This document shows, one piece after another, positions 3,581-51,635 of a stretch of 64,000 nt of DNA. Numbering within the stretch: the first letter of the stretch is position 1; every line of letters starts with the position of its first letter. The stretch is taken from positions 9,338-73,337 of the forward strand of contig MHWB01000013.1 in assembly GCA_001823925.1 (NCBI GenBank). The letters run 5' to 3'. The DNA is from Candidatus Zambryskibacteria bacterium RIFCSPLOWO2_01_FULL_39_39 (lineage in GTDB: Bacteria > Patescibacteriota > Minisyncoccia > Phycocordibacterales > WO2-35-19). The notes under the pieces are model-generated. The model searched no databases, was not told the DNA's origin, and worked only from the letters and a program-made list of their open reading frames with translations. Position numbers and translations under genes: made by a program.

Positions 3581-3688
3581 GACACGACACTAATTACGAA
3601 TAAGGAACGAATGACACAAATAAATTAAGAATAATAGGATAAGGATATGTTATAAAAATAAAAAAAGCAAAAATACCTCACCCCCCAA

Positions 3689-3714
3689 CCCCTCTCCTAG
3701 ATGTAGGAGAGGGG
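3689..3714. repeat. GC-rich hairpin cccctctcct-agatgt-aggagagggg (possible bidirectional terminator between topA and flp-like gene)
   Basis: perfect 10-bp inverted repeat in AT-rich intergenic DNA; member of CCCTC..GAGGG hairpin family. Confidence 0.5.
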
Positions 3715-5193: not shown

Positions 5194-6474
5194 ATGCTGG
5201 ATATTAAGTTTATAAGGGAAAACGCGGAGTTGGTGCAGGAAGGTGCTAAAAAGAAGCACATTCTTTTTGATGTTGCTAAACTCATAGAAGTTGACGATAA
5301 AAGAAAAATAATAAGTCAAAATTTGGAAGAAAAAAGGGCTAGACAAAACAAAGTAAGTATTGATGTATCTAAAGCGGGACAATCTGGAAATATTGAAGAA
5401 AAAGAAAAACTAATAAAAGAGATGCAACCATTGAAAGAGGAAATGCAAAAAATGGAAGAAGAATTGAAAGAGGTGATGATAGCGTGGCAAAAACTTATGG
5501 TTTCGGTACCAAATATTCCCGACATGTCGGTGCCAGAGGGTGACGACGATGGTACCAATATTGAAGTAAAGAAATGGGGGGAAATTCCAAAATTTAATTT
5601 TACATCAAAAGATCACATTGAACTCATGGAAAATCTTGACTTAGCTGATTTTGAGACTGGCGCTAAAGTTTCTGGCTTCCGAGGTTATTTCTTGAAAAAC
5701 GAGGGAGCGGAACTGGCTTTTGCTATTTGGCAACTGACCATGAATTTATTTAGAGAAAAACACAAAGATTATTCGGTAATGTTTGTGCCGTCACTGGTAA
5801 AAAGGGAGACTCTGCTTGGATCAGGGTATTTGCCACAAGGTGAAGATGATTTATATAAAACTCAAGATGGGGAATATCTTTCCGGTACAGCCGAAGTGGC
5901 TACCATGAGTTATTTTGCCGATAAAATTTTGGACAAGAAAAATTTACCAACGAAGGTCTTAGCTTTTTCCCCGGCCTTTAGAAAGGAAGCTGGGAGTTAT
6001 AGCAAAGACACCAAAGGTCTTTATCGAGTACATGAGTTTATGAAATTTGAGCAAGTGATTTTATGTGAAGCTAGTCACGAAGAAAGTGTAAAGCATCATG
6101 AAGAGTTGCTTTCAAACGCCGAAGAGATGTTACAAGCACTCGGTTTACCATATCATGTAGTTATAAATTGCGGAGGCGATCTGGGCTTAGGACAGGTCAA
6201 AAAATATGACATAGAGACATGGATGCCTTCAAAAGAAAAATACGGCGAGACTCATTCTTGTTCATACTTTCACGACTTCCAAACTCGTCGGCTCAATATA
6301 AAGTACAGAGATACAGATGGAAAATTAAAATTTGCTCATTCTTTAAACAATACAGCCATTGCTACTCCAAGAATACTTATTCAATTAGTTGAAAACAATC
6401 AGCAAGCCGACGGTTCTATCATTATTCCCGAAGTCCTGCGTCCTTATATGGGTGGCAAAAGCAAAATAGAATAA
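5194..6474 (+). CDS. serS: Seryl-tRNA synthetase
   Basis: 426 aa; N-terminal coiled coil then class II core (motifs FRKEAGS, GLYRVHEF, ...). Confidence 0.9.
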   Translation: MLDIKFIRENAELVQEGAKKKHILFDVAKLIEVDDKRKIISQNLEEKRARQNKVSIDVSKAGQSGNIEEKEKLIKEMQPLKEEMQKMEEELKEVMIAWQKLMVSVPNIPDMSVPEGDDDGTNIEVKKWGEIPKFNFTSKDHIELMENLDLADFETGAKVSGFRGYFLKNEGAELAFAIWQLTMNLFREKHKDYSVMFVPSLVKRETLLGSGYLPQGEDDLYKTQDGEYLSGTAEVATMSYFADKILDKKNLPTKVLAFSPAFRKEAGSYSKDTKGLYRVHEFMKFEQVILCEASHEESVKHHEELLSNAEEMLQALGLPYHVVINCGGDLGLGQVKKYDIETWMPSKEKYGETHSCSYFHDFQTRRLNIKYRDTDGKLKFAHSLNNTAIATPRILIQLVENNQQADGSIIIPEVLRPYMGGKSKIE

Positions 6475-6495
6475 CACCCTCGCGCTACGCGTCGA

Positions 6496-6516
6496 CCCCT
6501 CTTATATTAAGAGGGG
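6496..6516. repeat. GC hairpin cccctctta-tat-taagagggg after serS (possible left end of DUF559 element)
   Basis: perfect 9-bp inverted repeat; near-identical hairpin at 7252. Confidence 0.5.
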
Positions 6517-6539
6517 TAAAAACAAAAATAATAAAAAAT

Positions 6540-6866
6540 ATGAGACAGTCAAAAAATGTAAAAATAGTGGTATTTGTACCAGTATCCTATGCGGACGTAA
6601 TTAGAGAAGTAATTGGGAAAAGTGAAGCTGGAAAAATTGGCGACTGTACTCATTGCAGTTTTTCTTCACAGGGTATTGGAAGATTTATACCAAATAATGG
6701 TGCTCACCCAACAATTGGTCAGGTCGGAAAATTAGAATCTGTACAAGAAGAACGTATAGAGTTTATTTGTGGCCGTGATTTTGTAGAAAATGTTGTTGCA
6801 GAAATTAAAAAAGTTCATCCGTATGAGGAGGTTGCTTTCGATTTATATTCATTGGAGGAATTATAA
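6540..6866 (+). CDS. Small NIF3/YqfO-like (PII-fold) domain protein, uncertain
   Basis: 108 aa; pattern VVFVP...HCSF..QG.G.F.P..GA.P.IG...E...ER.E..C.R...E.V...IK.VHPYEEVAFD resembles C-terminal part of NIF3/YbgI family. Confidence 0.3.
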   Translation: MRQSKNVKIVVFVPVSYADVIREVIGKSEAGKIGDCTHCSFSSQGIGRFIPNNGAHPTIGQVGKLESVQEERIEFICGRDFVENVVAEIKKVHPYEEVAFDLYSLEEL

Positions 6867-6880
6867 AAAATGTAATATTA

Positions 6881-7267
6881 ATGAACTCTAAATTTCTTTA
6901 TAATAATAAAGTTTTGAGAGATCGCAGACAAGAGTTAAGAAATGGTGCGACTGAATCGGAAAAAATTCTTTGGAATAATTTGAAACACAGTAAACTCGGA
7001 GGTTTTAAATTTGTAAGACAGTATAGTGTTGGCCCTTATATTCTGGATTTTTATTGTCCAAAATTGCGATTGGCAATAGAATTAGATGGAAGCCAACATA
7101 GCGAGCGAGATGCAATTTTGTATGATAAAGATAGGAATGATTATTTGGACGCTGTGTATATAAAAGTTTTGAGATTTTGGAATATGGAGATAACAAAAAA
7201 TATAAAAGGGTCGATTGATAAAATTTTACAAGAAATACTTAAAGTAGCAGACCCCCTCTTAAAATAA
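6881..7267 (+). CDS. DUF559 (Vsr-like restriction-endonuclease fold) domain protein
   Basis: 128 aa; ILWNNL...FKFVRQYSVGPYILDFYCPKLRLAIELDGSQH...RNDYLD..YIKVLRFWN.EI matches DUF559 pattern; same domain is embedded inside tgt at 49915-50160. Confidence 0.75.
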   Translation: MNSKFLYNNKVLRDRRQELRNGATESEKILWNNLKHSKLGGFKFVRQYSVGPYILDFYCPKLRLAIELDGSQHSERDAILYDKDRNDYLDAVYIKVLRFWNMEITKNIKGSIDKILQEILKVADPLLK

Positions 7268-7274
7268 GAGGGGG
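7252..7274. repeat. GC hairpin ccccctctta-aaa-taagaggggg at 3' end of DUF559 gene
   Basis: perfect 10-bp inverted repeat followed by cagggggtg. Confidence 0.5.
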
Positions 7275-7295
7275 CAGGGGGTGATATGAAATAAT

Positions 7296-8102
7296 ATGCA
7301 TAATACCAGGTATAAAAAAGCCTCTTCTAGGATAAGCAGAAGAAGTGAAGTAAGAAGGTTTTTAAGTTTATTTTTTAAAATAGGGATACCCATCACTTTT
7401 TTGGTCTGTTTGATTTTTCTTTTGCGGGCGGATTTTTTGCAGGTAAAAACTTTTGAAATCTTGGGGGCAGAAGTTATCCAAGTGGCAGAAATCGAAAATA
7501 CTGCTTTGAACTTTACCCTGGGCAATCAGTTTTTTCTGATACCCAAATCAAATCTGTTTTTTTTGAATAAAGAAAAATTAGCATCTGTTTTATTATCAAA
7601 ATTTGGAAGATTAGAGGAAGTGTCCGTGAACAAACACTTTTTAAGTAAAAATATTGAATTAAAGATAGTAGAGAGAAAAGATGACTTTTTTTGGTGTTTG
7701 ATACAGACAGAGTGTTTTTTGATGAGCAAAGATGGGTTGGTCTTTGAATCCTATTCTGCAGAAGCTACGCGAGGCAAGGTAATTTTTGGCGGTATCTTGG
7801 ACGGAGATCCTTTAATGAAAAATTTTGCTACTCCAGAAAAAATGCAAAATTATTCAAATTTAATTAGAGTTTTCAAAGAAGCCGGTTTTGAAGTTTCCTC
7901 TATAAATATAGAATCTTCTGACAAGGCAGTGGCCAAAATTGAAATTGTAGACATAATATTTAATCCAGAGGAGGAGAATCTCTCTCTTACGGCTGAAAAT
8001 GTCGTACTTTTAATAAATGAATTAAAAAGTAAAAATTCCTCCACCACTTTCAATTATATAGATGCTCGTTTTAACAACAAAATTTTTTATAAACTCTACT
8101 GA
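7296..8102 (+). CDS. ftsQ: Cell division protein FtsQ/DivIB-like (POTRA domain)
   Basis: basic N-terminus, one TM helix, then POTRA-like pattern FEILGAEVI...LIPKSNLFFLNKEKLASVLLSKFGRLEEVSVNKHFLSKNIELKIVERK. Confidence 0.5.
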   Translation: MHNTRYKKASSRISRRSEVRRFLSLFFKIGIPITFLVCLIFLLRADFLQVKTFEILGAEVIQVAEIENTALNFTLGNQFFLIPKSNLFFLNKEKLASVLLSKFGRLEEVSVNKHFLSKNIELKIVERKDDFFWCLIQTECFLMSKDGLVFESYSAEATRGKVIFGGILDGDPLMKNFATPEKMQNYSNLIRVFKEAGFEVSSINIESSDKAVAKIEIVDIIFNPEEENLSLTAENVVLLINELKSKNSSTTFNYIDARFNNKIFYKLY

Positions 8103-11287: not shown

Positions 11288-12355
11288 ATGAATTTTTGGA
11301 ATGAAATGAAAAAGCCGATACTTTGTCTCGCGCCATTAGCAGATGTTACTGATGTGGCTTTTAGGCATATTATTGCTAAATATTCGAAAGAAATGTCAAA
11401 GGGCGCCTTCGAAATGCCCCGGTCCCAGAAGGCGCCCTTTGACATTTCTACCTACGTTACTTATACCGAATTTGTTTCGGCCGATGGACTTGTTTTGGCT
11501 CCGGAAACAGGTAGGAGAAGACTCTTAAAAGATTTGGAATATTCTGAAATAGAAAGGCCGATCGTGGCACAACTTTTTAGCAGTAATCCAGAGAATATGA
11601 AAAAAGTTGCTTCTCTTGTTATGGAATTAGGTTTTGATGGTGTAGATATAAATATGGGTTGTCCCGATAAAAGTGTAGAGAAGCAGGGAGCTGGTGCCGC
11701 CCTTATAAAGAACCCAAAGCTTGCAAGAGAAATAATAAGATATGCAAAGACAGGTATAAAAGAAGCAGCAGAGAGGCTGGGTAAAGAAGAAATACCGCTG
11801 TCAGTAAAAACCAGACTTGGTTATAACGATGATGAGTTAGAAAGTTGGTTGCCAGAATTATTGGCGGAAAATCCGGCAGCTATTATTATCCATGCTCGCA
11901 CAAGGAAAGAAATGTCTAAAGTCCCTGCTCGTTGGGAGCGTATCAGACGTGCCGTTGAGATAAGGGATGAAGTGTCAAGGTTCAACCTTGACACTCAAAA
12001 AACTTTAATAATTGGTAATGGAGATGTTTTAGATGTTGCAGATGCAATAAAAAAATGTGAAGAGAGTGGCGCAGACGGGGCCATGCTCGGGAGAGCAGTT
12101 TTTGGCAATCCTTGGCTCTTTTCTACCCACGTGCCGACCGCTTCCGAAAAATTAAAAGTCTTGCTGGAACATATTAAACTTTTTGAAGAAAAATTGGGTG
12201 GGGTAAAAAATTTTGCTGTTATGAAAAAACATTTCAAAGCTTACCTTTCTGGTTTTCCTGTTGGTAGTGATTTTAGACTAAAAGAATTAAGAGATAGGCT
12301 CATGCAAACAAAGGACGCTAAAGATGCGGAGATTTTGTTAAGCGAATACTTATAA
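11288..12355 (+). CDS. dusB: tRNA-dihydrouridine synthase (DusB-like) carrying two in-frame palindromic insertions
   Basis: 355 aa; LAPLADVTDVAFRHI...YTEFVSADGL...DINMGCPDK...IHARTR...GNGDV motifs of Dus family. Confidence 0.8.
   Translation: MNFWNEMKKPILCLAPLADVTDVAFRHIIAKYSKEMSKGAFEMPRSQKAPFDISTYVTYTEFVSADGLVLAPETGRRRLLKDLEYSEIERPIVAQLFSSNPENMKKVASLVMELGFDGVDINMGCPDKSVEKQGAGAALIKNPKLAREIIRYAKTGIKEAAERLGKEEIPLSVKTRLGYNDDELESWLPELLAENPAAIIIHARTRKEMSKVPARWERIRRAVEIRDEVSRFNLDTQKTLIIGNGDVLDVADAIKKCEESGADGAMLGRAVFGNPWLFSTHVPTASEKLKVLLEHIKLFEEKLGGVKNFAVMKKHFKAYLSGFPVGSDFRLKELRDRLMQTKDAKDAEILLSEYL
11391..11447. repeat. 57-bp palindromic element in dusB (20-bp perfect stems aaatgtcaaagggcgccttc, loop gaaatgccccggtccca), encodes MSKGAFEMPRSQKAPFDIS
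   Basis: insertion sits where Dus family has short KYG-to-TEMVSA linker; loop shared with elements at 21781 and 25994. Confidence 0.7.
11970..11994. repeat. Short palindrome agtgtcaagg-ttcaa-ccttgacact inside dusB (encodes VSRFNLDT)
   Basis: perfect 10-bp stems; family member of 4229 copy. Confidence 0.6.
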
Positions 12356-18716: not shown

Positions 18717-19628
18717 TTATTTATTGCCCCGTAAAAAATCTTCGTAAAGCATTTCTTTTTTACCTTCTGGTATTATTTTTAATATTTTTAATTTATCATC
18801 TTCAATTGTGGCATCTGTTATTATAATGCGTTTTTCTTTATTAAAATAATAAGAAGTGGGCCACTCTTCAAAGGCTTTTATTTTAAGCAAATTTTTAAGT
18901 GGATTGTCACTTAAATCAAGAAAGCCATCTTCTTTTTTTATTTTTTGGCAATAAGTTGCTTTATCTTCATTTTGTATTATTGGATCTATTGCTCCCAAGA
19001 GCCATTCTGGTAAAATATGAGCAAATAGTCCTGCTCCCTCTATTGCTAAAATTTTTTCTAATTCTTTTCTGCCGACCTCACCCCATGCCCCTTTGGTGCC
19101 TTGCTCCTCCCCTTGACAAGGGGAGGGGTTGGGGAGAGGTTTTTGAATTACAATAGGTCCTGTATCCATTGCTTCTTCAATCTGCATAATACTTACCCCC
19201 ACTTCCGTATCGTTATTTAAAATCTGACTCTGGATAGGAGAAGCGCCACGATATTTTGGCAACAGAGAAGGGTGGATATTTAAAGTTTTGTGTTTTGGTA
19301 TTTCAAAAATTTCTTTAGGAATTATTTTGCCGTAAGAAGCGACTAAAAAGAGATCCCAATCTCCAAATTTTACTTCGGTATTACGAAGAAATTCTTCTGC
19401 ATTAGAGCCCCGCTCACTTCTTAAGGTTTCTGGATCAAAAACTTCTATATTATTTTTTTGACCCCATACCCTTACTTCATTTGGAGTAAGTATCATCTTT
19501 CTGCCTTTTGGTCTGTCAGGAATTGTTATCAAAAGGTTTGGCAACATACCATGTTGTTTCAATTCGTCCAAAACATAAACAGAAAATCTTGAACTGCCAA
19601 AGAATGCCCAATGTACTTTGTTTATCAT
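18717..19628 (-). CDS. fmt: Methionyl-tRNA formyltransferase with Pro/Gly-rich insertion
   Basis: 303 aa; formyl-transferase N and C domains; insertion PLPNPSPCQGEEQGTKGAWGEVG coded by GC hairpin at 19104-19139. Confidence 0.85.
   Translation of the reverse strand: MINKVHWAFFGSSRFSVYVLDELKQHGMLPNLLITIPDRPKGRKMILTPNEVRVWGQKNNIEVFDPETLRSERGSNAEEFLRNTEVKFGDWDLFLVASYGKIIPKEIFEIPKHKTLNIHPSLLPKYRGASPIQSQILNNDTEVGVSIMQIEEAMDTGPIVIQKPLPNPSPCQGEEQGTKGAWGEVGRKELEKILAIEGAGLFAHILPEWLLGAIDPIIQNEDKATYCQKIKKEDGFLDLSDNPLKNLLKIKAFEEWPTSYYFNKEKRIIITDATIEDDKLKILKIIPEGKKEMLYEDFLRGNK
19104..19139. repeat. GC hairpin ctcctcccctt-gaca-aggggagggg + ttggggagagg inside fmt
   Basis: inverted repeat of CCCTCCCC/GGGGAGGG family. 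Confidence 0.55.
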
Positions 19629-20229: not shown

Positions 20230-22224
20230 CTATAACAAATTATCTGGATCTGTCTTAATCTCAAAGTGGGGAGGTAAAGATTTTAAAATAGAAAAAAGAG
20301 CAGAATCTACCCATTTTTCTTTGGGTATTTTAATGACGGCATTTATGGCAGATTGCTCACCCCTTTTTTCATGAATGGATGGGAAAATGGTGGCGCTATA
20401 ATTTTTATTTTCGGAATTTTCAAACACATTCTTCAACACTTGAGTTTCTTTTCCGACAAAACTTTTAGTGCCTCTCACTGTTATTTTTATAAAAATACTA
20501 AAAGGTGGGTAACTTAAAACCGCGCGATCCTCTATTTCCTTTTTATAAAATTCTATTAAATTGCCACTTCTTGCAAATTCTACAGTTGAATCTTTTGGGT
20601 TTCTGGTCTGTATCAAAAGGTTTTCTTTGGCTATACTTTTGGTTTGTAAAATAAGACGGAAAATTTTTTCTCTGATACGAAAATCAGGAATAGAGAATAG
20701 GGAATCAAAAGAACAAATAGCACTACTTCCCACTTTTTTATAAATATAAGAGAGAGCCATCTCGGTACCCAAAAGTATTGAGCCTTTATTTTCATAAAAG
20801 TTTTTGATTACATTTAAGGCTTTGGCGTTTGTTTCAACAATATCTTTGTGTAATTCAAAAAGATTTATGTTTGGGACACTCTTTCTTAATTCTTCGGCTA
20901 CTCTGTCAATACCAGAACCAAATGCCGCAAGCTTCCAGCTGTGACAATTTTGACAAACTTCTGCCGCGTCTCGTGTTTCGCCACATTGATGACATTTAAA
21001 AACGGCGCCATTTTGGGTACTTTGGTCCGGAGATGTTTTAGTTTTATATAAGATCATAGGAGATGAGCAGTTGAAACATTTTACCTGTTCTCCGCAGTCA
21101 CGGCAGACAGTAACCGACGATAAGCCTTTTCTAGCCGCAAATATAAACATATTAGAACCTTTTTCTATGGTTTTTTTGATTAAATTTAGTAATTCTGGCG
21201 ATATGGTTTTGAATTCTTTTCCTTGCCCCAATTCTTTCAAGTCTATTATGGTCGTTTTGATTTCAAGAGGCATTCGCCATTTGACGTTTTCAAATTCAGA
21301 TACTTCCCCTTGTTTGTATCTGTATAAAGTTTCTATTCTCAAAAAAGAATCTCCAATCACGGTACGGATATTTTTTTTATTAGCCAAAATTTCAGCAAAA
21401 AATCGAAGGTCTATAAAAGGTCGCGATAAAGTTTTCCAACCAGTTTCATTTTCTTTATCTATAATAATGGTGCCGAAATCTAATCTTGGCAAAAATAACC
21501 ATTTGGCTGTGGCTATAATTAATACAGGATGCTTTGTTTCGCATGCCCTTTTCCATTCCTTGATTAAATCCTTTTTCTTCATTTCATTATGAAAAGTGCA
21601 GACAAAGGATTCTATACCACGTTCTAGTTTTTCCTGAGTTTTTCGCACGTTTTCATTTTGAGGTAAGCATAGAAAAACTGATTTTTTCTTAGCAAATTCT
21701 TCCCTGATAAGAGATTTATAAAGATCTAATCTTTCCTCGTTTGGAGCTTGTAAGATAGCAATTTCATTTTTAATACTGTCGTTGCCAAGGACAGTCCTTA
21801 AACTGCCCCGGTCCCAAAGGACTGTCCTTGGCAACTGAAGCAAGTTTGGGTTTTCTAAAATGAAAGAAGGAATAAGTTGGGGAATAATATTGCCTTCTGT
21901 GGCGACAAAATATTTGGCCGTCTCTCTCACCGCTTCCAAGAATTTTTTTTGTAAAAATGGTTTAGCAGTTACGGCTGAAATTTTTTTTAATTGAAAATTT
22001 GCGGATTTTATAGAAAGTTTTGCCTCTGTCACGTCCTTACTTTCTAAAACCAAAGCTGAAACACTTTTTCCTCTAATGTTTATTTTTAACAAAGAACCGG
22101 GCTCTAAATATTTAGGTCCAAAATATGACAGTGACTCTTTACTCAAACCTTTTGAAAGTGGTAGACATTCTATGATAAACATATGCTTTAAGTAAAAAGC
22201 AAAAAGCCTAAAGTAGCAAGTCAT
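20230..22224 (-). CDS. priA: Primosomal protein N' (PriA helicase) with in-frame palindromic insertion
   Basis: 664 aa; helicase core plus Cys4-Cys4 zinc module CRDCGEQVKCFNC...CHQCGE...CQNCHS. Confidence 0.85.
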   Translation of the reverse strand: MTCYFRLFAFYLKHMFIIECLPLSKGLSKESLSYFGPKYLEPGSLLKINIRGKSVSALVLESKDVTEAKLSIKSANFQLKKISAVTAKPFLQKKFLEAVRETAKYFVATEGNIIPQLIPSFILENPNLLQLPRTVLWDRGSLRTVLGNDSIKNEIAILQAPNEERLDLYKSLIREEFAKKKSVFLCLPQNENVRKTQEKLERGIESFVCTFHNEMKKKDLIKEWKRACETKHPVLIIATAKWLFLPRLDFGTIIIDKENETGWKTLSRPFIDLRFFAEILANKKNIRTVIGDSFLRIETLYRYKQGEVSEFENVKWRMPLEIKTTIIDLKELGQGKEFKTISPELLNLIKKTIEKGSNMFIFAARKGLSSVTVCRDCGEQVKCFNCSSPMILYKTKTSPDQSTQNGAVFKCHQCGETRDAAEVCQNCHSWKLAAFGSGIDRVAEELRKSVPNINLFELHKDIVETNAKALNVIKNFYENKGSILLGTEMALSYIYKKVGSSAICSFDSLFSIPDFRIREKIFRLILQTKSIAKENLLIQTRNPKDSTVEFARSGNLIEFYKKEIEDRAVLSYPPFSIFIKITVRGTKSFVGKETQVLKNVFENSENKNYSATIFPSIHEKRGEQSAINAVIKIPKEKWVDSALFSILKSLPPHFEIKTDPDNLL
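21781..21835. repeat. 55-bp palindromic element in priA (stems ttgccaaggacagtcctt, loop aaactgccccggtccca) encoding LPRTVLWDRGSLRTVLGN
   Basis: near-identical to intergenic copy 25994-26048. Confidence 0.75.
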
Positions 22225-25991: not shown

Positions 25992-25993
25992 TA

Positions 25994-26048
25994 GTTGCCA
26001 AGGACAGTCCTTAAAATGCCCCGGTCCCAAAGGACTGTCCTTGGCAAC
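25994..26048. repeat. Intergenic copy of 55-bp palindromic element (holB-frr spacer)
   Basis: ttgccaaggacagtccttaaaatgccccggtcccaaaggactgtccttggcaa; 1 nt different from priA copy. Confidence 0.75.
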
Positions 26049-26052
26049 TTAA

Positions 26053-49155: not shown

Positions 49156-50778
49156 ATGTTTAAAATAGAGCAAAAAATCTCGAAGTCACTGGGTCGAGCT
49201 GGTGTTTTAATTACTCCACATGGGGAGGTACAAACACCTAGCTTTGTAGCTGTCGGTACTAAAGCAACGGTCAAATCTCTCTCACCCGAACAGGTCAAAG
49301 AGGCTGGGTCGCAAATAGTTTTGGCCAATACCTATCATCTTTATTTAGAACCCGGAGAAAAAATTGTGAAAGAAGCGGGGGGCTTGGGTAAGTTTATGAA
49401 TTGGCAAGGTCCAACTATGACAGACTCGGGCGGTTTTCAAGCTTTTTCTTTGGGGGTGGCTTATGGAAGTAAGCTTAGTAAATTTATTGGCAATGAGTCT
49501 CCAAAACAAGAAGAGATAGACGAAGCTTATAGAGAAGAGCGAGATAAGAAAGCAAAGATTACCGAAGATGGGGTGGAATTTAAATCTATTATAGATGGTA
49601 GCAAACATTTTTTTACTCCAGAAAAATCAATGCAAATTCAAAGTGACCTAGGAGCTGATATTATTTTTGCTTTTGATGAGTGTACTTCACCACATGCACC
49701 CAAGGAGTATTTGAAGGAAGCTTTGGCGCGGACTCATCGTTGGGCAGAAAGGTGTTTGATTGAATACAGAAAAAATCACCCCACCCCGACCCTCCCCGAA
49801 GGGGAGGGTGCCCAAAGGGGAACTTTCGGTTATCACACAACAGATTCGGTTACTTGGAAAAATCTTCAACAAAGAGTTTTAGAAATGAGAGAAAAACCTA
49901 CTCCCGCTGAAAATATGCTATGGCAACATTTAAGAAAAAATTCAACAAAATATCATTTTAGAAGACAACATATAGTGGGAAATTTTATTGTTGATTTTGT
50001 TTGCCTAGAAAAATCATTAGTAATTGAAGTTGATGGAGATATCCATGATTACCAAAAGGAAGAAGATAAATCCAGAACAGAGTTTTTAAATAAATTAGGT
50101 TTTTATATTTTAAGATTTAAGAACGAAGAGGTAGTAGAGAATATTTTAAAAGTATTAGAGGGTATAAAGGTTGGTCTTAAAGCCCTCCCCTTTGGGGAGG
50201 GTTTGGGTGGGGTTTCTTCCCAAGCTCTCTTTGGCATAGTCCAAGGTGGCAGGTATGAAGATTTGAGGAAAGAAAGCGCTAAGGTGATAGGAGAGATGGA
50301 TTTTGATGGTTTTGGCATTGGAGGCTCCTTTGTTAAAGAAGATATGGCGACAGCGGTCAAATGGGTGAGTGGAATTTTGCCAACTGATAAACCTAGGCAT
50401 CTTTTGGGGGTGGGAGAGCCTGTTGACATTATTTTTGGTGTTGAAAACGGATGCGACACATTTGACTGTGTCGCCGCGACACGTATGGCGCGCAATGGCA
50501 CACTCTATACCAAACGAGGTAAAATAAATATCAACAACGCCAAGTATAAAAATATTTTTGAGCCGATTGAAGAGGGGTGCAAGTGTTATACTTGTAAAAA
50601 TTATACCTGTTGCTACCTTTCCCACCTTTTTCGCTCCAAAGAAATGTTGGCCGCTACTTTAGCATCTATTCATAATCTTTATTTTATAAATTCTCTGGTT
50701 GCAGAGATGAGAGAATCAATTTTAAACGAAAATTTTTTTGATTTTAAAGAAAATTTTTTAAGAGATTATAAAGTTTAG
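49156..50778 (+). CDS. tgt: Queuine tRNA-ribosyltransferase carrying an in-frame ~145-aa insertion that contains a DUF559 endonuclease domain
   Basis: 540 aa; TGT N-terminal (LITPHGEVQTPSFVAVGT, LANTYHL, TDSGGFQ), then insertion between ERCLIEYRKN and QALFGIVQGG, then zinc site CKCYTCKNYTCCYLSH. Confidence 0.8.
   Translation: MFKIEQKISKSLGRAGVLITPHGEVQTPSFVAVGTKATVKSLSPEQVKEAGSQIVLANTYHLYLEPGEKIVKEAGGLGKFMNWQGPTMTDSGGFQAFSLGVAYGSKLSKFIGNESPKQEEIDEAYREERDKKAKITEDGVEFKSIIDGSKHFFTPEKSMQIQSDLGADIIFAFDECTSPHAPKEYLKEALARTHRWAERCLIEYRKNHPTPTLPEGEGAQRGTFGYHTTDSVTWKNLQQRVLEMREKPTPAENMLWQHLRKNSTKYHFRRQHIVGNFIVDFVCLEKSLVIEVDGDIHDYQKEEDKSRTEFLNKLGFYILRFKNEEVVENILKVLEGIKVGLKALPFGEGLGGVSSQALFGIVQGGRYEDLRKESAKVIGEMDFDGFGIGGSFVKEDMATAVKWVSGILPTDKPRHLLGVGEPVDIIFGVENGCDTFDCVAATRMARNGTLYTKRGKININNAKYKNIFEPIEEGCKCYTCKNYTCCYLSHLFRSKEMLAATLASIHNLYFINSLVAEMRESILNENFFDFKENFLRDYKV
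49777..50212 (+). mobile_element. DUF559-encoding insertion element with ~35-bp GC-rich hairpin terminal inverted repeats, integrated in frame within tgt
   Basis: left end accccaccccgaccctccccgaaggggaggg is approx reverse complement of right end ccctcccctttggggagggtttgggtggggt; internal 49915-50160 encodes MLWQHLRKNSTKYHFRRQHIVGNFIVDFVCLEKSLVIEVDGDIH...LRFKNEEV (DUF559). Confidence 0.55.
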
Positions 50779-50783
50779 ATAAT

Positions 50784-51635
50784 ATGATTTACAATCTTTA
50801 TAAACAGCGGGGGGAGACACCACTAGAATGTATCCAAAGATTTGCCAGAAAAACTCCAGAATTAAAGGGAGAGAAGATGACCTATTTGGGGAGGTTGGAC
50901 CCTTTGGCCGAAGGGGTTTTGCTTATGGCTAGTGGCATTGACGTAAAGAGGAAAGAGGAGTTTTTGGGGTTGGATAAGGAATATGATTTTATTTCTATTT
51001 TTGGCTTTGCTACCGACACCTATGATGTGCTTGGTAAAATTGTAAGAGTAGAAAAAGTGCCCATTCGACAAGCTCAGGGTGAAAATGCTAATACCATTTT
51101 CGAAAATGAAATTAGGAAAGTGGCGTTAATTTATGAAGGAGAAAGAGAACAGAAATACCCAACGTATTCTTCTAAAATTATAGCCAATAAAAAAACCTCA
51201 CCCCTCGCTTCGCGTAGCCCTCTCCTTGTTCAGGAGAGGGAAGGCGTGGAGTCAGGGTCTTTGGGTTTTCCCTCCCCTGAGCAAGGGGAGGGTGGGGTGG
51301 GGTTTTCTAAAAAAATTACTATACATAAAATTCAATTTCATAAATTAGAAACTCTAAACAATAAAGAACTTTTTGGTAGGCTTCTTTCAGATATTTCAAA
51401 AGTAAATGGTGATTTCAGACAGCATGAAATTTTGATTTTATGGAAAGAAATTTTACTTAATTCGGGTGCGCCCCGGAGTTATTTTTTGGGTAGGTTTAGC
51501 GCTCATGTCTCAAGTGGCACTTATATCCGCGGTTTGGTAAACGATATAGGCAATACTTTGGGTTGTGGGGCCACCACTCTTTCTATCAAAAGGACAAGGG
51601 TTGGGGATTACAAAATTGAAGACAGTATAAAATAA
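50784..51635 (+). CDS. truB: tRNA pseudouridine(55) synthase TruB-like with Pro/Gly-rich hairpin-encoded insertion
   Basis: 283 aa; LGRLDPLAEGVLLMA catalytic Asp motif, C-terminal SSGTYIRGLVNDIGNTLGCGATTLSIKRTRVG. Confidence 0.7.
   Translation: MIYNLYKQRGETPLECIQRFARKTPELKGEKMTYLGRLDPLAEGVLLMASGIDVKRKEEFLGLDKEYDFISIFGFATDTYDVLGKIVRVEKVPIRQAQGENANTIFENEIRKVALIYEGEREQKYPTYSSKIIANKKTSPLASRSPLLVQEREGVESGSLGFPSPEQGEGGVGFSKKITIHKIQFHKLETLNNKELFGRLLSDISKVNGDFRQHEILILWKEILLNSGAPRSYFLGRFSAHVSSGTYIRGLVNDIGNTLGCGATTLSIKRTRVGDYKIEDSIK
51199..51306. repeat. Tandem GC hairpins (ccctctcc-ttgttca-ggagaggg and ccctcccc-tgagcaa-ggggaggg) + ggtggggtggggtttt inside truB
   Basis: encodes SPLASRSPLLVQEREGVESGSLGFPSPEQGEGGVGF; same family as tgt TIRs. 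Confidence 0.6.

Follow-up and report, generated by a model that had tools for sequence, protein, structure and literature searches.

I-Bth0305I is a homodimeric EDxHD homing endonuclease that cuts pseudopalindromic targets, and the EDxHD homing endonucleases form a selfish family whose members are also found as free-standing genes (PMC3239194). Short palindromes of another kind, the Rickettsia palindromic elements, are reviewed in PMC10969869 (Ogata et al. 2000 cited there) and lie in frame in conserved housekeeping genes, where they are translated as extra loops. The window analysed here, a stretch of 64,000 nucleotides from Candidatus Zambryskibacteria bacterium RIFCSPLOWO2_01_FULL_39_39, holds between serS and an ftsQ-like gene a small gene of the DUF559 family that is flanked by palindromes. 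DUF559 is a large family with thousands of members and no known function; no autonomous partner gene is known for the Rickettsia palindromic elements. We propose that the DNA between about 6472 and 7288 is probably one copy in a family of selfish palindrome-bounded nuclease cassettes, long resident at this locus. We consider it very likely that it was inserted block-wise as a discrete element and that the DUF559-hairpin family to which it belongs is insertion-polymorphic.

Architecture of the serS-ftsQ element

The features of the element are as follows.

6472..6480, + strand: 5' outer arm (C-arm) TAACACCCT, the inverse of the 3' G-arm
6481..6491, + strand: small CG-clamp hairpin CGCG-cta-CGCG, between the C-arm and the 5' main hairpin
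6495..6517, no strand assigned: 5' main hairpin A-CCCCTCTTA-tat-TAAGAGGGG-T
6524..6872, + strand: putative passenger cassette, comprising an A-rich leader, a YqfO-like ORF (6540-6866, 108 aa) and a few trailer bases
6881..7267, + strand: predicted DUF559 (Vsr/EDxHD-fold) endonuclease gene, 128 aa (Pfam PF04480)
7252..7274, no strand assigned: 3' main hairpin CCCCCTCTTA-aaa-TAAGAGGGGG
7277..7288, + strand: 3' outer arm (G-arm) GGGGGTG, then AT and ATG

The pair of near-identical hairpins that an earlier note on this DNA had placed at the two ends of the segment was borne out, and all of its coordinates and sequences matched on re-check: the 5' hairpin CCCCTCTTA-tat-TAAGAGGGG at 6496-6516 gains one extra A:T pair, which extends it to 6495-6517, and its counterpart lies at 7252-7274. 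The two hairpins are direct repeats of each other as well as inverted repeats. The pattern CCCCTCTTANNNTAAGAGGGG has two matches in the window, both at this element, and none in 100 dinucleotide shuffles; a search with the 9-mer stem and one mismatch was uninformative (15 matches versus 14.3 expected), and specificity belongs to the exact full hairpin only. Folded as single-stranded DNA, the 5' end reaches -13.5 kcal/mol (z = -4.9) and the 3' end -10.3 kcal/mol (z = -3.5). Against a relative with about 70% identity in the flanking genes, the 5' main hairpin is about 98% conserved.

The arms and hairpins are interlaced with the ends of the neighbouring genes. The first three bases of the C-arm TAACACCCT are the stop codon TAA of serS, and the arm is kept as TAACACCCCC in relatives L187, L006 and L183. 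At the other end, the DUF559 stop codon (7265-7267) falls within the 3' arm of the 3' main hairpin, which is followed by ca-GGGGGTG-at-ATG (7275-7288). The ATG behind the G-arm is the start codon of the ftsQ-like gene in relatives; in the window a 2-codon mini-ORF (7286-7294) starts there instead, just ahead of the ftsQ-like start at 7296. The outer flanks had been described earlier as mutually inverted; inverted they are, but the window copy shares only 5-6 nt (CACCC / GGGTG), and we accept the outer arms as real because relatives show them. Relative L185 has a perfect pair, ATAACACCCCC / GGGGGTGTTAT, and a second DUF559 element in the window, in tgt, repeats the arm-plus-hairpin layout with the arms CACCCCACCCC / GGGTGGGGTT. 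Where the window element has the CG-clamp hairpin, L187 carries ACTCCGC-taac-GCGGAGT, another sequence in which pairing is retained, and a gene-less copy in truB carries CGC-ttc-GCG.

A nuclease gene of the Vsr fold

The 128-aa ORF is a DUF559 member, as had been noted from its translation (PF04480, E = 3e-32; 111 bits versus a cut-off of 20.6), and DUF559 and MTES_1575 are the only Pfam matches in the protein. Its sequence matches PDB 3HRL with E = 2e-20. The AF2 model (pLDDT 83) comprises one nuclease domain and two N-terminal helices, and Foldseek searches with it retrieved 3HRL (4e-8), 3R3P (1.5e-4) and 1VSR (0.085), so that a Vsr-type alpha/beta nuclease fold is predicted. By the same model, the closest characterised structural relative would be the catalytic domain of I-Bth0305I (3R3P), against which the sequence profile gave E = 0.038. 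Residues D56, E67, D69, H73 and D82 are invariant in 26 sequences, and E67, D69, H73 and D82 among them are consistent with the EDxHD composite motif E-D-x-H-D. A dN/dS of 0.16-0.20 versus relatives indicates that the predicted nuclease gene is under purifying selection. Most close DUF559 homologues end in PLLK, TPS or PPLKIRGGRG, which are the 3' main hairpin DNA read in its three frames. Defence-system identification by PADLOC returned only weak domain-level nuclease similarity.

The locus in related genomes

The relatives compared were recovered via exact-protein look-ups, and the closest ones are not among the DUF559 scan matches listed. The earlier note had suggested looking for serS directly followed by the ftsQ-like gene, and relative L154 shows this arrangement: it keeps the topA-dprA-serS-ftsQ synteny, its ftsQ-like gene begins 13 nt after serS, and hairpins, DUF559 and YqfO are all absent from the junction. 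The DUF559 element of L154 is placed in the dprA-serS spacer, which is reciprocally empty in the window. This empty junction, together with the layout of arm and hairpin at one end and hairpin and arm at the other, supports the discrete inserted unit proposed earlier; at given sites, related genomes either have the whole unit or lack all of it, and its bounds lie exactly at the arms. Every closer relative recovered has the element at the same locus with both hairpins present (DUF559 identity 65-99%), and the window copy has not moved recently.

The interior and the flanks of the element differ in divergence, with nucleotide identity of about 0.65-0.75 in the flanks and 0.84-0.97 within the element. 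Nucleotide identity between the window and L006 is 0.84-0.97 over 6442-7026 and 0.61-0.75 in the flanks; between the window and L187 it is 0.84-0.91 over 6876-7325, falling to about 0.76 in serS and to 0.55-0.71 in the ftsQ-like gene. The edges of these islands are sharp and are placed at the two arms, the left edge at the C-arm (6472..6480) and, versus L187, the right edge at the G-arm. Synonymous differences (pS) amount to 0.27 for YqfO and 0.22-0.55 for DUF559 versus 0.70-0.78 (saturated) in the flanks. Judged from these comparisons, the element interior is mosaic and has a younger history than its flanks. Target-site duplications, for which the earlier note had proposed a search, were not found: no direct repeat lies outside the arms at the serS, tgt, truB and fmt copies, although divergence of the empty sites limits this comparison.

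A variable slot beside the 5' hairpin

The 108-aa ORF had been labelled NIF3/PII-like, and this label is right, since the ORF aligns with residues 162-261 of 2GX8, a NIF3-related protein from B. cereus (E = 3.5e-27), and its homologues are named 'YqfO family protein' by NCBI. The identity to this PII-like insert domain is about 50%; the ORF differs from NIF3/YqfO proteins in standing alone, without the NIF3 dinuclear-metal core, and a Pfam search with it returned no match, including none to PF01784 (NIF3 core). The single-domain YqfO gene is widely conserved in Parcubacteria in other gene contexts; it lies within the hairpin bounds at serS-ftsQ and is an ordinary chromosomal gene unlinked to DUF559 in distant relatives.

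Three relatives have a compact state, hairpin-DUF559-hairpin, in which the DUF559 ATG follows the hairpin after only 12-23 nt (L187, L190 and L184, with DUF559 82%, 76% and 65% identical to that of the window). The slot is occupied by YqfO in the window and in L006 (DUF559 78% identical), by an unrelated 135-aa ORF in L182/L183 (73%) and by a CYTH gene on the P0128 contig (77%). Slot content is at odds with the DUF559 tree, because the DUF559 proteins of L006 and L182 are 88% identical and their slot genes differ. On the best reading of these arrangements, YqfO would be a secondary passenger that sits in the short spacer (12-23 nt) separating the 5' hairpin from the start of DUF559; in exchange between lineages, whatever fills the slot seems to move together with the element's 5' half. 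The boundaries of the passenger cassette are approximate because its junctions are A-rich. The earlier description of YqfO as cargo therefore holds in part: its occupancy of a variable slot and the low synonymous divergence that it shares with the element interior favour it, but the complete hairpin-YqfO-DUF559-hairpin unit was never seen at a second locus in the relatives examined. A functional YqfO-DUF559 gene pair was rejected, as DUF559 is found without YqfO at the same locus in relatives and, in three more distant contexts, YqfO stands beside SecA/NUDIX or PNPOx/LysE with no DUF559.

Related copies in the window and across the family

Further copies with related ends lie elsewhere in the window.

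49777..50214, + strand: tgt copy, an in-frame DUF559 element of 438 nt (146 codons) with hairpin ends and arms
51197..51304, + strand: truB copy, a gene-less double hairpin (MITE-like), in frame in a truB-like ORF
19077..19139, no strand assigned (fmt on the minus strand): fmt copy, a solo unit (C-arm, spacer, hairpin, G-arm), in frame
3676..3714, no strand assigned: intergenic solo C-arm and hairpin, CCTCACCCCCC-aa-CCCCTCTCCTA-gatg-TAGGAGAGGGG

The ends of the tgt element are formed by a C-arm and hairpin (49777-49809) and by a hairpin and G-arm (50183-50214). The serS-ftsQ element had been taken for a possible copy of the same mobile family, and the architecture is indeed shared; however, the window's two DUF559 proteins share just 36% identity and their elements have different hairpin stems (CCCCTCTTA versus CCCTCCCC); they belong to different subfamilies of one superfamily and are not copies of one element. 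Across the best 120 Tgt homologues the loop is empty or holds a solo unit, a gene-less double hairpin or a DUF559 element; it is empty in most, and the DUF559 element is present in 12 of these 120 closest homologues. The DNA order of the solo unit in relatives is C-arm, hairpin, G-arm. Among the Tgt homologues DUF559 identity tracks Tgt identity, a pattern that would fit old vertical inheritance with losses equally well as repeated homing. An intein in tgt was rejected, the element being a plain in-frame read-through that lacks splicing junction residues. The peptide-coding gene-less element of truB is also found in the tgt loop of relative P0256. Non-flanking units number 4 in the 64 kb; gene-less and solo-hairpin derivatives do exist, some of them in frame in housekeeping genes.

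We surveyed 160 DUF559 loci from many phyla (at least 8). Hairpin units occur at 3.8 per kb beside DUF559 versus 0.17 per kb elsewhere, a 22-fold enrichment; the possibility raised earlier that the hairpins are scattered at random, unlinked to the gene, is contradicted by this figure. Among the 142 loci whose flanks are complete, 132 show one or more units, and in 72 units lie on each side. Members of the family are found in many contexts, a single locus of the 160 being near serS. The DUF559 start codon is supplied by an equivalent of the G-arm, GGGG(G)AGTTATG, in 32/160 other loci. The window-type topology, with the arms outside the hairpins, accounts for 8-13 of the 160 loci, and distant members most often show an arms-inside order (hairpin, G-arm, ORF, C-arm, hairpin; at least 36/160). 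No gene other than DUF559 recurs with hairpin units in the loci examined.

Proposed mechanism and alternatives

The mobility mechanism that we infer starts from a cassette in which a C-arm, a GC-rich hairpin, a short spacer, the DUF559 gene, a second copy of the hairpin and an inverse G-arm follow one another. A dimeric nuclease would recognise the long interrupted palindrome formed by arm, hairpin and arm, and would cut gene-less copies or new sites; repair of the break, templated on a gene-bearing copy with the conserved units as homology, would then copy in all sequence between both hairpins, and hairpin-hairpin recombination could delete the gene again and leave a solo unit. The window copy would be an old resident of the serS-ftsQ spacer in a Zambryskibacteria clade, whose G-arm may have come to provide the ribosome-binding site and start codon for the ftsQ-like gene. 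That the DUF559 nuclease itself drives the spread through its action on palindromic units is to us nearly an even question. Several observations constrain this scheme. The protein, at 128 aa, has no counterpart of the additional DNA-binding region found in I-Bth0305I. The sharp edges of the identity islands count against classical homing, because homing would co-convert the flanks. Because there are two arm topologies, a single split-target model fails to cover both, and the single split-palindrome target model was rejected since it leaves the arms-inside topology dominant in other phyla without account. Fixation of the copy at serS-ftsQ down to 65% DUF559 divergence is counted against active mobility, and the spread of solo units to new, non-homologous sites is left unexplained by the scheme.

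An alternative that we consider unlikely takes the units as MITE-like ends moved in trans by an unseen and unrelated transposase or recombinase, with DUF559 as a mere frequent passenger (for instance a restriction-like or addiction nuclease), comparable to YqfO. Terminal inverted repeats, an internal gene and gene-less derivatives do make up the classic picture of autonomous and non-autonomous transposons, the slot accepts unrelated genes, and we know of no strand-transfer activity for a 128-aa Vsr-fold nuclease. A passenger role accords poorly, however, with the 22-fold linkage to DUF559 across at least 8 phyla and with DUF559 start and stop codons built into the arms in many copies; moreover, no target-site duplications were seen, and the units are found without any other recurrent gene in the loci examined.

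Less plausible again is a REP/RAYT-like arrangement, in which the palindromes would be semi-domesticated repeats (mRNA stabilisers or translation-initiation modules) and DUF559 a host nuclease, inherited vertically, by which the flanking repeats are maintained or spread, as RAYT does with REPs. Insertion polymorphism of the gene at tgt, serS-ftsQ and dprA-serS argues against this reading, as do two divergent DUF559 copies in 64 kb, solo units that are few (4 in 64 kb) rather than in the hundreds, and an element interior younger than its flanks, even though palindromes flanking the gene in inverted or direct orientation, solo units elsewhere in the window, a long stay at one locus under purifying selection and a downstream start region given by the G-arm would all be expected of it. 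An ordinary immobile operon, with DUF559 as a housekeeping Vsr-type repair nuclease and the hairpins as regulatory elements or terminators, is already disfavoured and very improbable: the genes from serS to clpB all lie on the same strand, the hairpins sit at intergenic or gene-end positions and the locus is conserved in close relatives, but intrinsic terminators were rejected (no T-run follows the hairpins, and a terminator scan was negative at both), an Rfam search found no known RNA motif at the locus and no intron-model match anywhere in the window, L154 has the empty junction, the in-frame tgt copy has the same ends, the arms bound identity islands and no dcm-like partner was seen beside DUF559.

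Returning to the selfish cassette, we tentatively extend it, with more doubt than conviction: DUF559 with its C-arm/hairpin and hairpin/G-arm ends could represent an unrecognised class of autonomous mobile elements in many bacterial phyla, in which a Vsr-fold nuclease of about 120 aa, the sole encoded protein, acts on its own ends, and which is marked by in-frame survival, derivatives and a one-gene slot. If so, such elements would persist inside essential genes by in-frame translation with neither intron nor intein, would shed solo and double-hairpin derivatives, and through the one-gene slot by the 5' hairpin would shuffle YqfO, CYTH and other small housekeeping genes between CPR lineages.

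Significance

DUF559 thereby gains a concrete candidate role, that of a nuclease tied to the palindromes around its own gene, and such a nuclease gene can reside inside an essential gene (tgt) without a self-splicing vehicle. Insertions in CPR proteins that resemble Rickettsia palindromic elements are linked to a candidate autonomous partner, and a small recurrent insertion slot may pass housekeeping genes from one lineage to another. A consequence for annotation is that the P/L/G/E-rich tails and extensions in many DUF559 proteins, and in host proteins, are translated hairpin units rather than protein features. We could not find this arrangement described in the literature on DUF559, I-Bth0305I, Vsr-like mobile elements or palindromic and MITE elements in CPR; coverage of that search was incomplete, so the widespread family is apparently undescribed, its novelty being unproven.

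Comparison with known systems

Elements of the IS200/IS605 type are likewise small, and hairpins, not long terminal inverted repeats, define their ends. The DUF559 element differs in lacking TnpA and TnpB and in having ends that are inverted copies of each other, where IS200/IS605 has dissimilar left and right ends; the arms of the DUF559 element also form a second inverted-repeat layer. With REP/RAYT systems it shares one small nuclease-type gene between palindromes presumed to be its substrate, as well as gene-less dispersed repeats. The nuclease is, however, of the PD-(D/E)xK / Vsr fold and not an HUH/Y1 transposase, the repeats are few per genome region (4 non-flanking in 64 kb; 0.17 per kb) and the DUF559 gene itself is insertion-polymorphic. 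MITEs are short, non-coding, bounded by terminal inverted repeats and absent from orthologous sites; the serS-ftsQ copy, which carries two genes, does not fit this type, and the gene-less copies in truB, fmt and relatives' tgt do. In behaviour, the Rickettsia palindromic elements are matched by the solo and double-hairpin copies of fmt, truB and relatives' tgt; the DUF559 family is distinguished from them by copies that have the same ends and carry a nuclease gene, by shorter units (about 45-110 nt) with an extreme C/G-strand bias, and by the intergenic position of the serS-ftsQ copy.

EDxHD homing endonucleases share with the DUF559 element the nuclease fold (Foldseek 3R3P E = 1.5e-4, profile 0.038) and occupied and empty alleles in relatives (serS-ftsQ, tgt loop). 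The element lies outside any group I intron or intein, its tgt copy being translated through; the serS-ftsQ copy is intergenic, and therefore among the settings of homing endonuclease genes only 'free-standing' applies to it. The 128-aa DUF559 protein is without the extended N-terminal DNA-binding region of I-Bth0305I, whose footprint is about 60 bp, and homing endonuclease genes as described are without the duplicated GC-rich hairpins and inverted arms seen around DUF559. The element is further set apart from them by its slot for unrelated genes.

An arm-bounded element between serS and the ftsQ-like gene

The spacer between serS and the ftsQ-like gene (about 6472-7288) holds, in order, a C-arm, a hairpin, two short ORFs, a second hairpin and a G-arm. 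All genes around it, from serS to clpB, lie on the plus strand, with dprA and topA upstream on the minus strand, in a window of 38.7% G+C.

5194-6474, plus strand: serS
6540-6866, plus strand: 108-aa ORF, YqfO-like
6881-7267, plus strand: 128-aa DUF559 ORF
7296-8102, plus strand: ftsQ-like gene (weak POTRA match)
3' of the ftsQ-like gene, plus strand: 133-aa ORF, then clpB

The 108-aa product is the stand-alone PII-like insert domain of NIF3/YqfO proteins (it matches 2GX8 residues 162-261, E = 3.5e-27), so that the earlier name of NIF3-like was right, and the 128-aa product is a clear DUF559 match. The two bracketing hairpins are likewise where the earlier note placed them; the two hits to the full pattern CCCCTCTTANNNTAAGAGGGG in the 64 kb are both at the element, 100 shuffles gave no hit, and both element ends fold far more strongly than shuffled controls. 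Three parts make up the 5' end: TAACACCCT, with the serS stop codon as its TAA; the small hairpin CGCG-cta-CGCG; and the main hairpin. The DUF559 stop codon lies inside the 3' hairpin, after which comes ca-GGGGGTG-at-ATG.

At 7286-7298 the window has bases added after the G-arm ATG relative to the loci L187, L006, L183 and L184, so that this ATG opens a two-codon mini-ORF (ATG AAA TAA). It overlaps the true ftsQ-like start (TAATATG), which suggests translational coupling or re-initiation. The G-rich strand of the unit, that is, hairpin plus outer arm (TAAGAGGGGG..GGGGGTGAT; 6495-6517, 7252-7288 and units generally), is similar to a strong Shine-Dalgarno region (TAAGGAGGTGAT), and the C-rich strand to the 16S rRNA 3' tail, the sequence of which is GATCACCTCCTTA.

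Occupied, empty and variable sites in relatives

Relatives at serS|ftsQ, recovered by exact-protein look-ups, form a graded series in which a one-gene slot between the 5' hairpin and the DUF559 start has variable content.

DUF559 identity to the window and slot content at serS|ftsQ
L187: about 82-84%; nothing (compact)
L004-L011: 78%; YqfO, like the window
P0128 contig: 77%; 188-aa CYTH gene, 8 nt from DUF559
L190: 76%; nothing (compact)
L182/L183: 73%; unrelated 135-aa ORF
L184: 65%; nothing (compact)

In the three compact relatives (L187, L190 and L184) the spacer measures 12-23 nt, and the order is serS, C-arm, hairpin, short spacer, DUF559, hairpin, G-arm and ftsQ-like ATG; aligned with L187, the window carries its YqfO cassette of about 350 nt within this spacer. 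The DUF559 tree is not matched by slot content: L006 and L182 have DUF559s 88% identical despite different slot genes (YqfO and the 135-aa ORF), and the window with YqfO and L187 with no passenger are about 82-84% identical. In distant Parcubacteria YqfO is an ordinary chromosomal gene, conserved at 60-85% identity in a SecA-YqfO-NUDIX or PNPOx-YqfO-LysE context without DUF559. Two of the related loci, L185/L186, also carry, at about 800-2200, a diversity-generating-type retroelement in the form of a reverse transcriptase (RVT_1) with a bAvd accessory gene; about 1.3 kb separates it from the DUF559 element. The P0128 contig has a bAvd gene near its element too.

Of 160 DUF559 loci at greater distance, taken from the matches listed, one is close to serS. 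This Hainich groundwater contig, L154, retains the synteny topA-dprA-serS-ftsQ-like (ftsQ-like match full length, E = 3e-14), and comparing it answers the earlier suggestion that serS-ftsQ synteny be checked in relatives: the ftsQ-like gene follows serS directly after 13 nt, with hairpin, DUF559 and YqfO all absent between. Instead, an element of the same arms-outside layout, with a DUF559 sharing 53% identity with that of the window, sits in its dprA|serS spacer, which in the window is 47 nt, AT-rich and empty. The two spacers are reciprocal occupied and empty sites, and the element is present or absent as a block whose boundaries are the arms.

Nucleotide identity between the window and L006 is 0.61-0.75 over dprA, serS, ftsQ and clpB, and 0.84-0.97 over the stretch that starts at the serS stop, includes YqfO and reaches into the first half of DUF559; at base level there are 8 differences in the final 35 nt of serS and 3 in the following 86 nt. 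Against L187, an island of 0.84-0.91 spans DUF559 and the 3' unit and stops at the G-arm/ftsQ start, beyond which identity is 0.55-0.71. The proportion of synonymous differences is 0.27 in YqfO and 0.22-0.55 in the DUF559 halves, as against a saturated 0.70-0.78 in flanking codons. The interval between the arms is therefore younger than its flanks and mosaic relative to them, with YqfO sharing the younger history. DUF559 evolves under purifying selection (dN/dS 0.16-0.20). The serS|ftsQ copy is a long-term resident and not a recent insertion. The cargo claim of the earlier note holds insofar as YqfO is a passenger; the unit with YqfO did not turn up at a second locus among the loci compared, and that it moves in one piece is suggested by the divergence patterns.

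Hairpin units across the DUF559 family

Most of the 120 closest DUF559 homologues end in PLLK/PLLR, TPS/NPS or PPLKIRGGRG, which are the window's 3' hairpin and G-arm read in three frames. Pyrimidine-arm hairpins with a stem of at least 8 bp were counted in the 160 loci (among matches listed, DUF559 41-64% identical to the window's), drawn from Patescibacteria, Nitrospirota, Desulfuromonadales, Myxococcota, Bacteroidota, Chloroflexota, Acidobacteriota, Planctomycetota and others. They number 3.8 per kb near DUF559 (-200/+150 nt) versus 0.17 per kb elsewhere in the same loci; at least one unit is present in 132 of the 142 loci with complete flanks, and both sides have one in 72. Hairpins are thus an attribute of DUF559 family-wide. 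The unit is asymmetric (hairpin plus G-arm or, reversed, C-arm plus hairpin). Most often the loci are arranged as hairpin, G-arm, ORF, C-arm, hairpin, where the G-arm adjoins the start codon (GGGGGAGTTATG) in 32 loci and the stop codon falls within a TAAC-C-run in 27. The window's own order, C-arm, hairpin, ORF, hairpin, G-arm, belongs to a minority type, direct repeats of the unit are present too, and we could derive neither the arms-inside nor the arms-outside topology from the other.

The tgt insertion and gene-less copies

The following further copies and units lie in the window.

49777-50214: DUF559 element in the tgt ORF (49156-50778), 438 nt (146 codons) inserted in frame into a Tgt surface loop
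about 51197-51304: gene-less double-hairpin (MITE-like) element, in frame in a truB-like ORF (50784-51635)
about 19077-19139: solo unit, in frame in the fmt ORF (18717-19628, minus strand), peptide PLPNPSPCQGEEQGTKGAWGEVG
3676-3714: C-arm plus hairpin, intergenic between topA and the next ORF

The tgt element, which makes Tgt 540 aa long, begins with CACCCCACCCC-ga-hairpin and closes with hairpin-ttt-GGGTGGGGTT. A comparison with the 120 closest homologues of Tgt (62-82% identity) shows the loop empty in most, some of them 82% identical; it holds a DUF559 element in 12 and in some a solo unit, e.g. GPTPNPYPKERGKGGVS. The DNA of the solo unit, CCCCACCCCC-aa-hairpin-aaa-GGGTGGGG, is the window's tgt element less one hairpin and all sequence between the hairpins. 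In the homologue P0256 the loop carries the same double-hairpin element as the window's truB, which translates there as ...KKTSPLASRSPLLVQEREGVESGSLGFPSPEQGEGGVGF... and in P0256 as a near-identical peptide, so that one element sits in different genes of different genomes. One site therefore occurs in gene-bearing, gene-less and solo states. The L182 genome has tgt empty and serS|ftsQ occupied, both states being assignable to it because P0277 and L182 share one 173,941-nt contig. Within Tgt proteins DUF559 identity follows Tgt identity, which indicates an old tgt insertion that has since been lost repeatedly, regained repeatedly, or both.

The earlier note had also proposed that the tgt and serS|ftsQ elements belong to the same mobile family. 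The latter is indeed a discrete element and shares the architectural family of the tgt insertion, but it is of a different subfamily, the two DUF559s being 36% identical; the small CG hairpin common to the truB copy and the serS element ties the two subfamilies architecturally. With YqfO as passenger, the first interpretation was largely right. The fmt solo unit and the 3676-3714 unit share the C-arm CCTCACCCC.

The Tgt loop is a general in-frame insertion hotspot: in P0252-P0346 it holds inserts some 30 aa long from at least four more families (HSLEQPEYFSAEKSP..., KKSSREQLSERDWRESE..., SSCSESPRISSLRSARLSS..., FRPLHPIAWDPHGPKF...), unrelated to hairpin units. Residues 101-133 (49456-49554; VAYGSKLSKFIGNESPKQEEIDEAYREERDKKA), about 33 aa, are the second stretch that Tgt has beyond the solved Tgt structures; they are not coded by a hairpin. 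Five near-perfect palindromes of 55-61 nt belong to other families unrelated to the units (GCAATGTCAA..., AGAAATGTCAAAGGGCGCC..., GTTGCCAAGGACAGTCCTT...); three share the loop ATGCCCCGGTCCCA, and four lie within ORFs with the frame unbroken. Palindromes that code for protein seem to pervade the genome.

2334-2389 and 2919-2974: palindromes inside topA
11389-11449: palindrome inside ORF 11288-12355
21781-21835: palindrome inside ORF 20230-22224
25993-26049: intergenic palindrome

Proposed mechanism and relation to known systems

We propose that cleavage by the nuclease, at units or at empty sites, is repaired on a gene-bearing copy with the conserved units as homology. Such repair would copy in everything between the hairpins and so account for the history that YqfO has in common with the element. 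The two hairpins, being direct as well as inverted repeats, may recombine, deleting the interior and leaving a solo unit. The Shine-Dalgarno-like G-arm (GGGGGTGAT) with its ATG might serve as start region for the downstream gene and so limit polar damage.

A sequence search with the 128-aa protein matched 3HRL, an uncharacterised Neisseria DUF559 protein, and nothing else; the family profile weakly reaches the I-Bth0305I catalytic domain (E = 0.038), and the AF2 model (pLDDT 83) has 3HRL as its best match, followed by I-Bth0305I (E = 1.5e-4) and Vsr. The homing endonuclease I-Bth0305I works as a homodimer, has a footprint of about 60 bp and favours a pseudopalindromic core (PMC3239194). Arm, hairpin and arm together form an interrupted palindrome of 45-50 bp, which could be a natural substrate for a symmetric dimer.

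No description of hairpin-bracketed DUF559 cassettes was found in the literature searched, coverage of which was incomplete. Among described systems, those closest to the element are EDxHD homing endonucleases, Rickettsia palindromic elements or in-frame MITEs, and REP/RAYT, and it departs from each in a defining feature. Unlike EDxHD homing endonucleases, which are free-standing or intron- or intein-borne, it has no intron, intein or extended DNA-binding region; it carries genes, whereas in-frame MITEs such as Rickettsia palindromic elements (PMC10969869) are gene-less; and REP/RAYT depends on an HUH transposase, of which the element has none. We rate it as a variant on known kinds, in an arrangement that is new as far as the literature searched shows.
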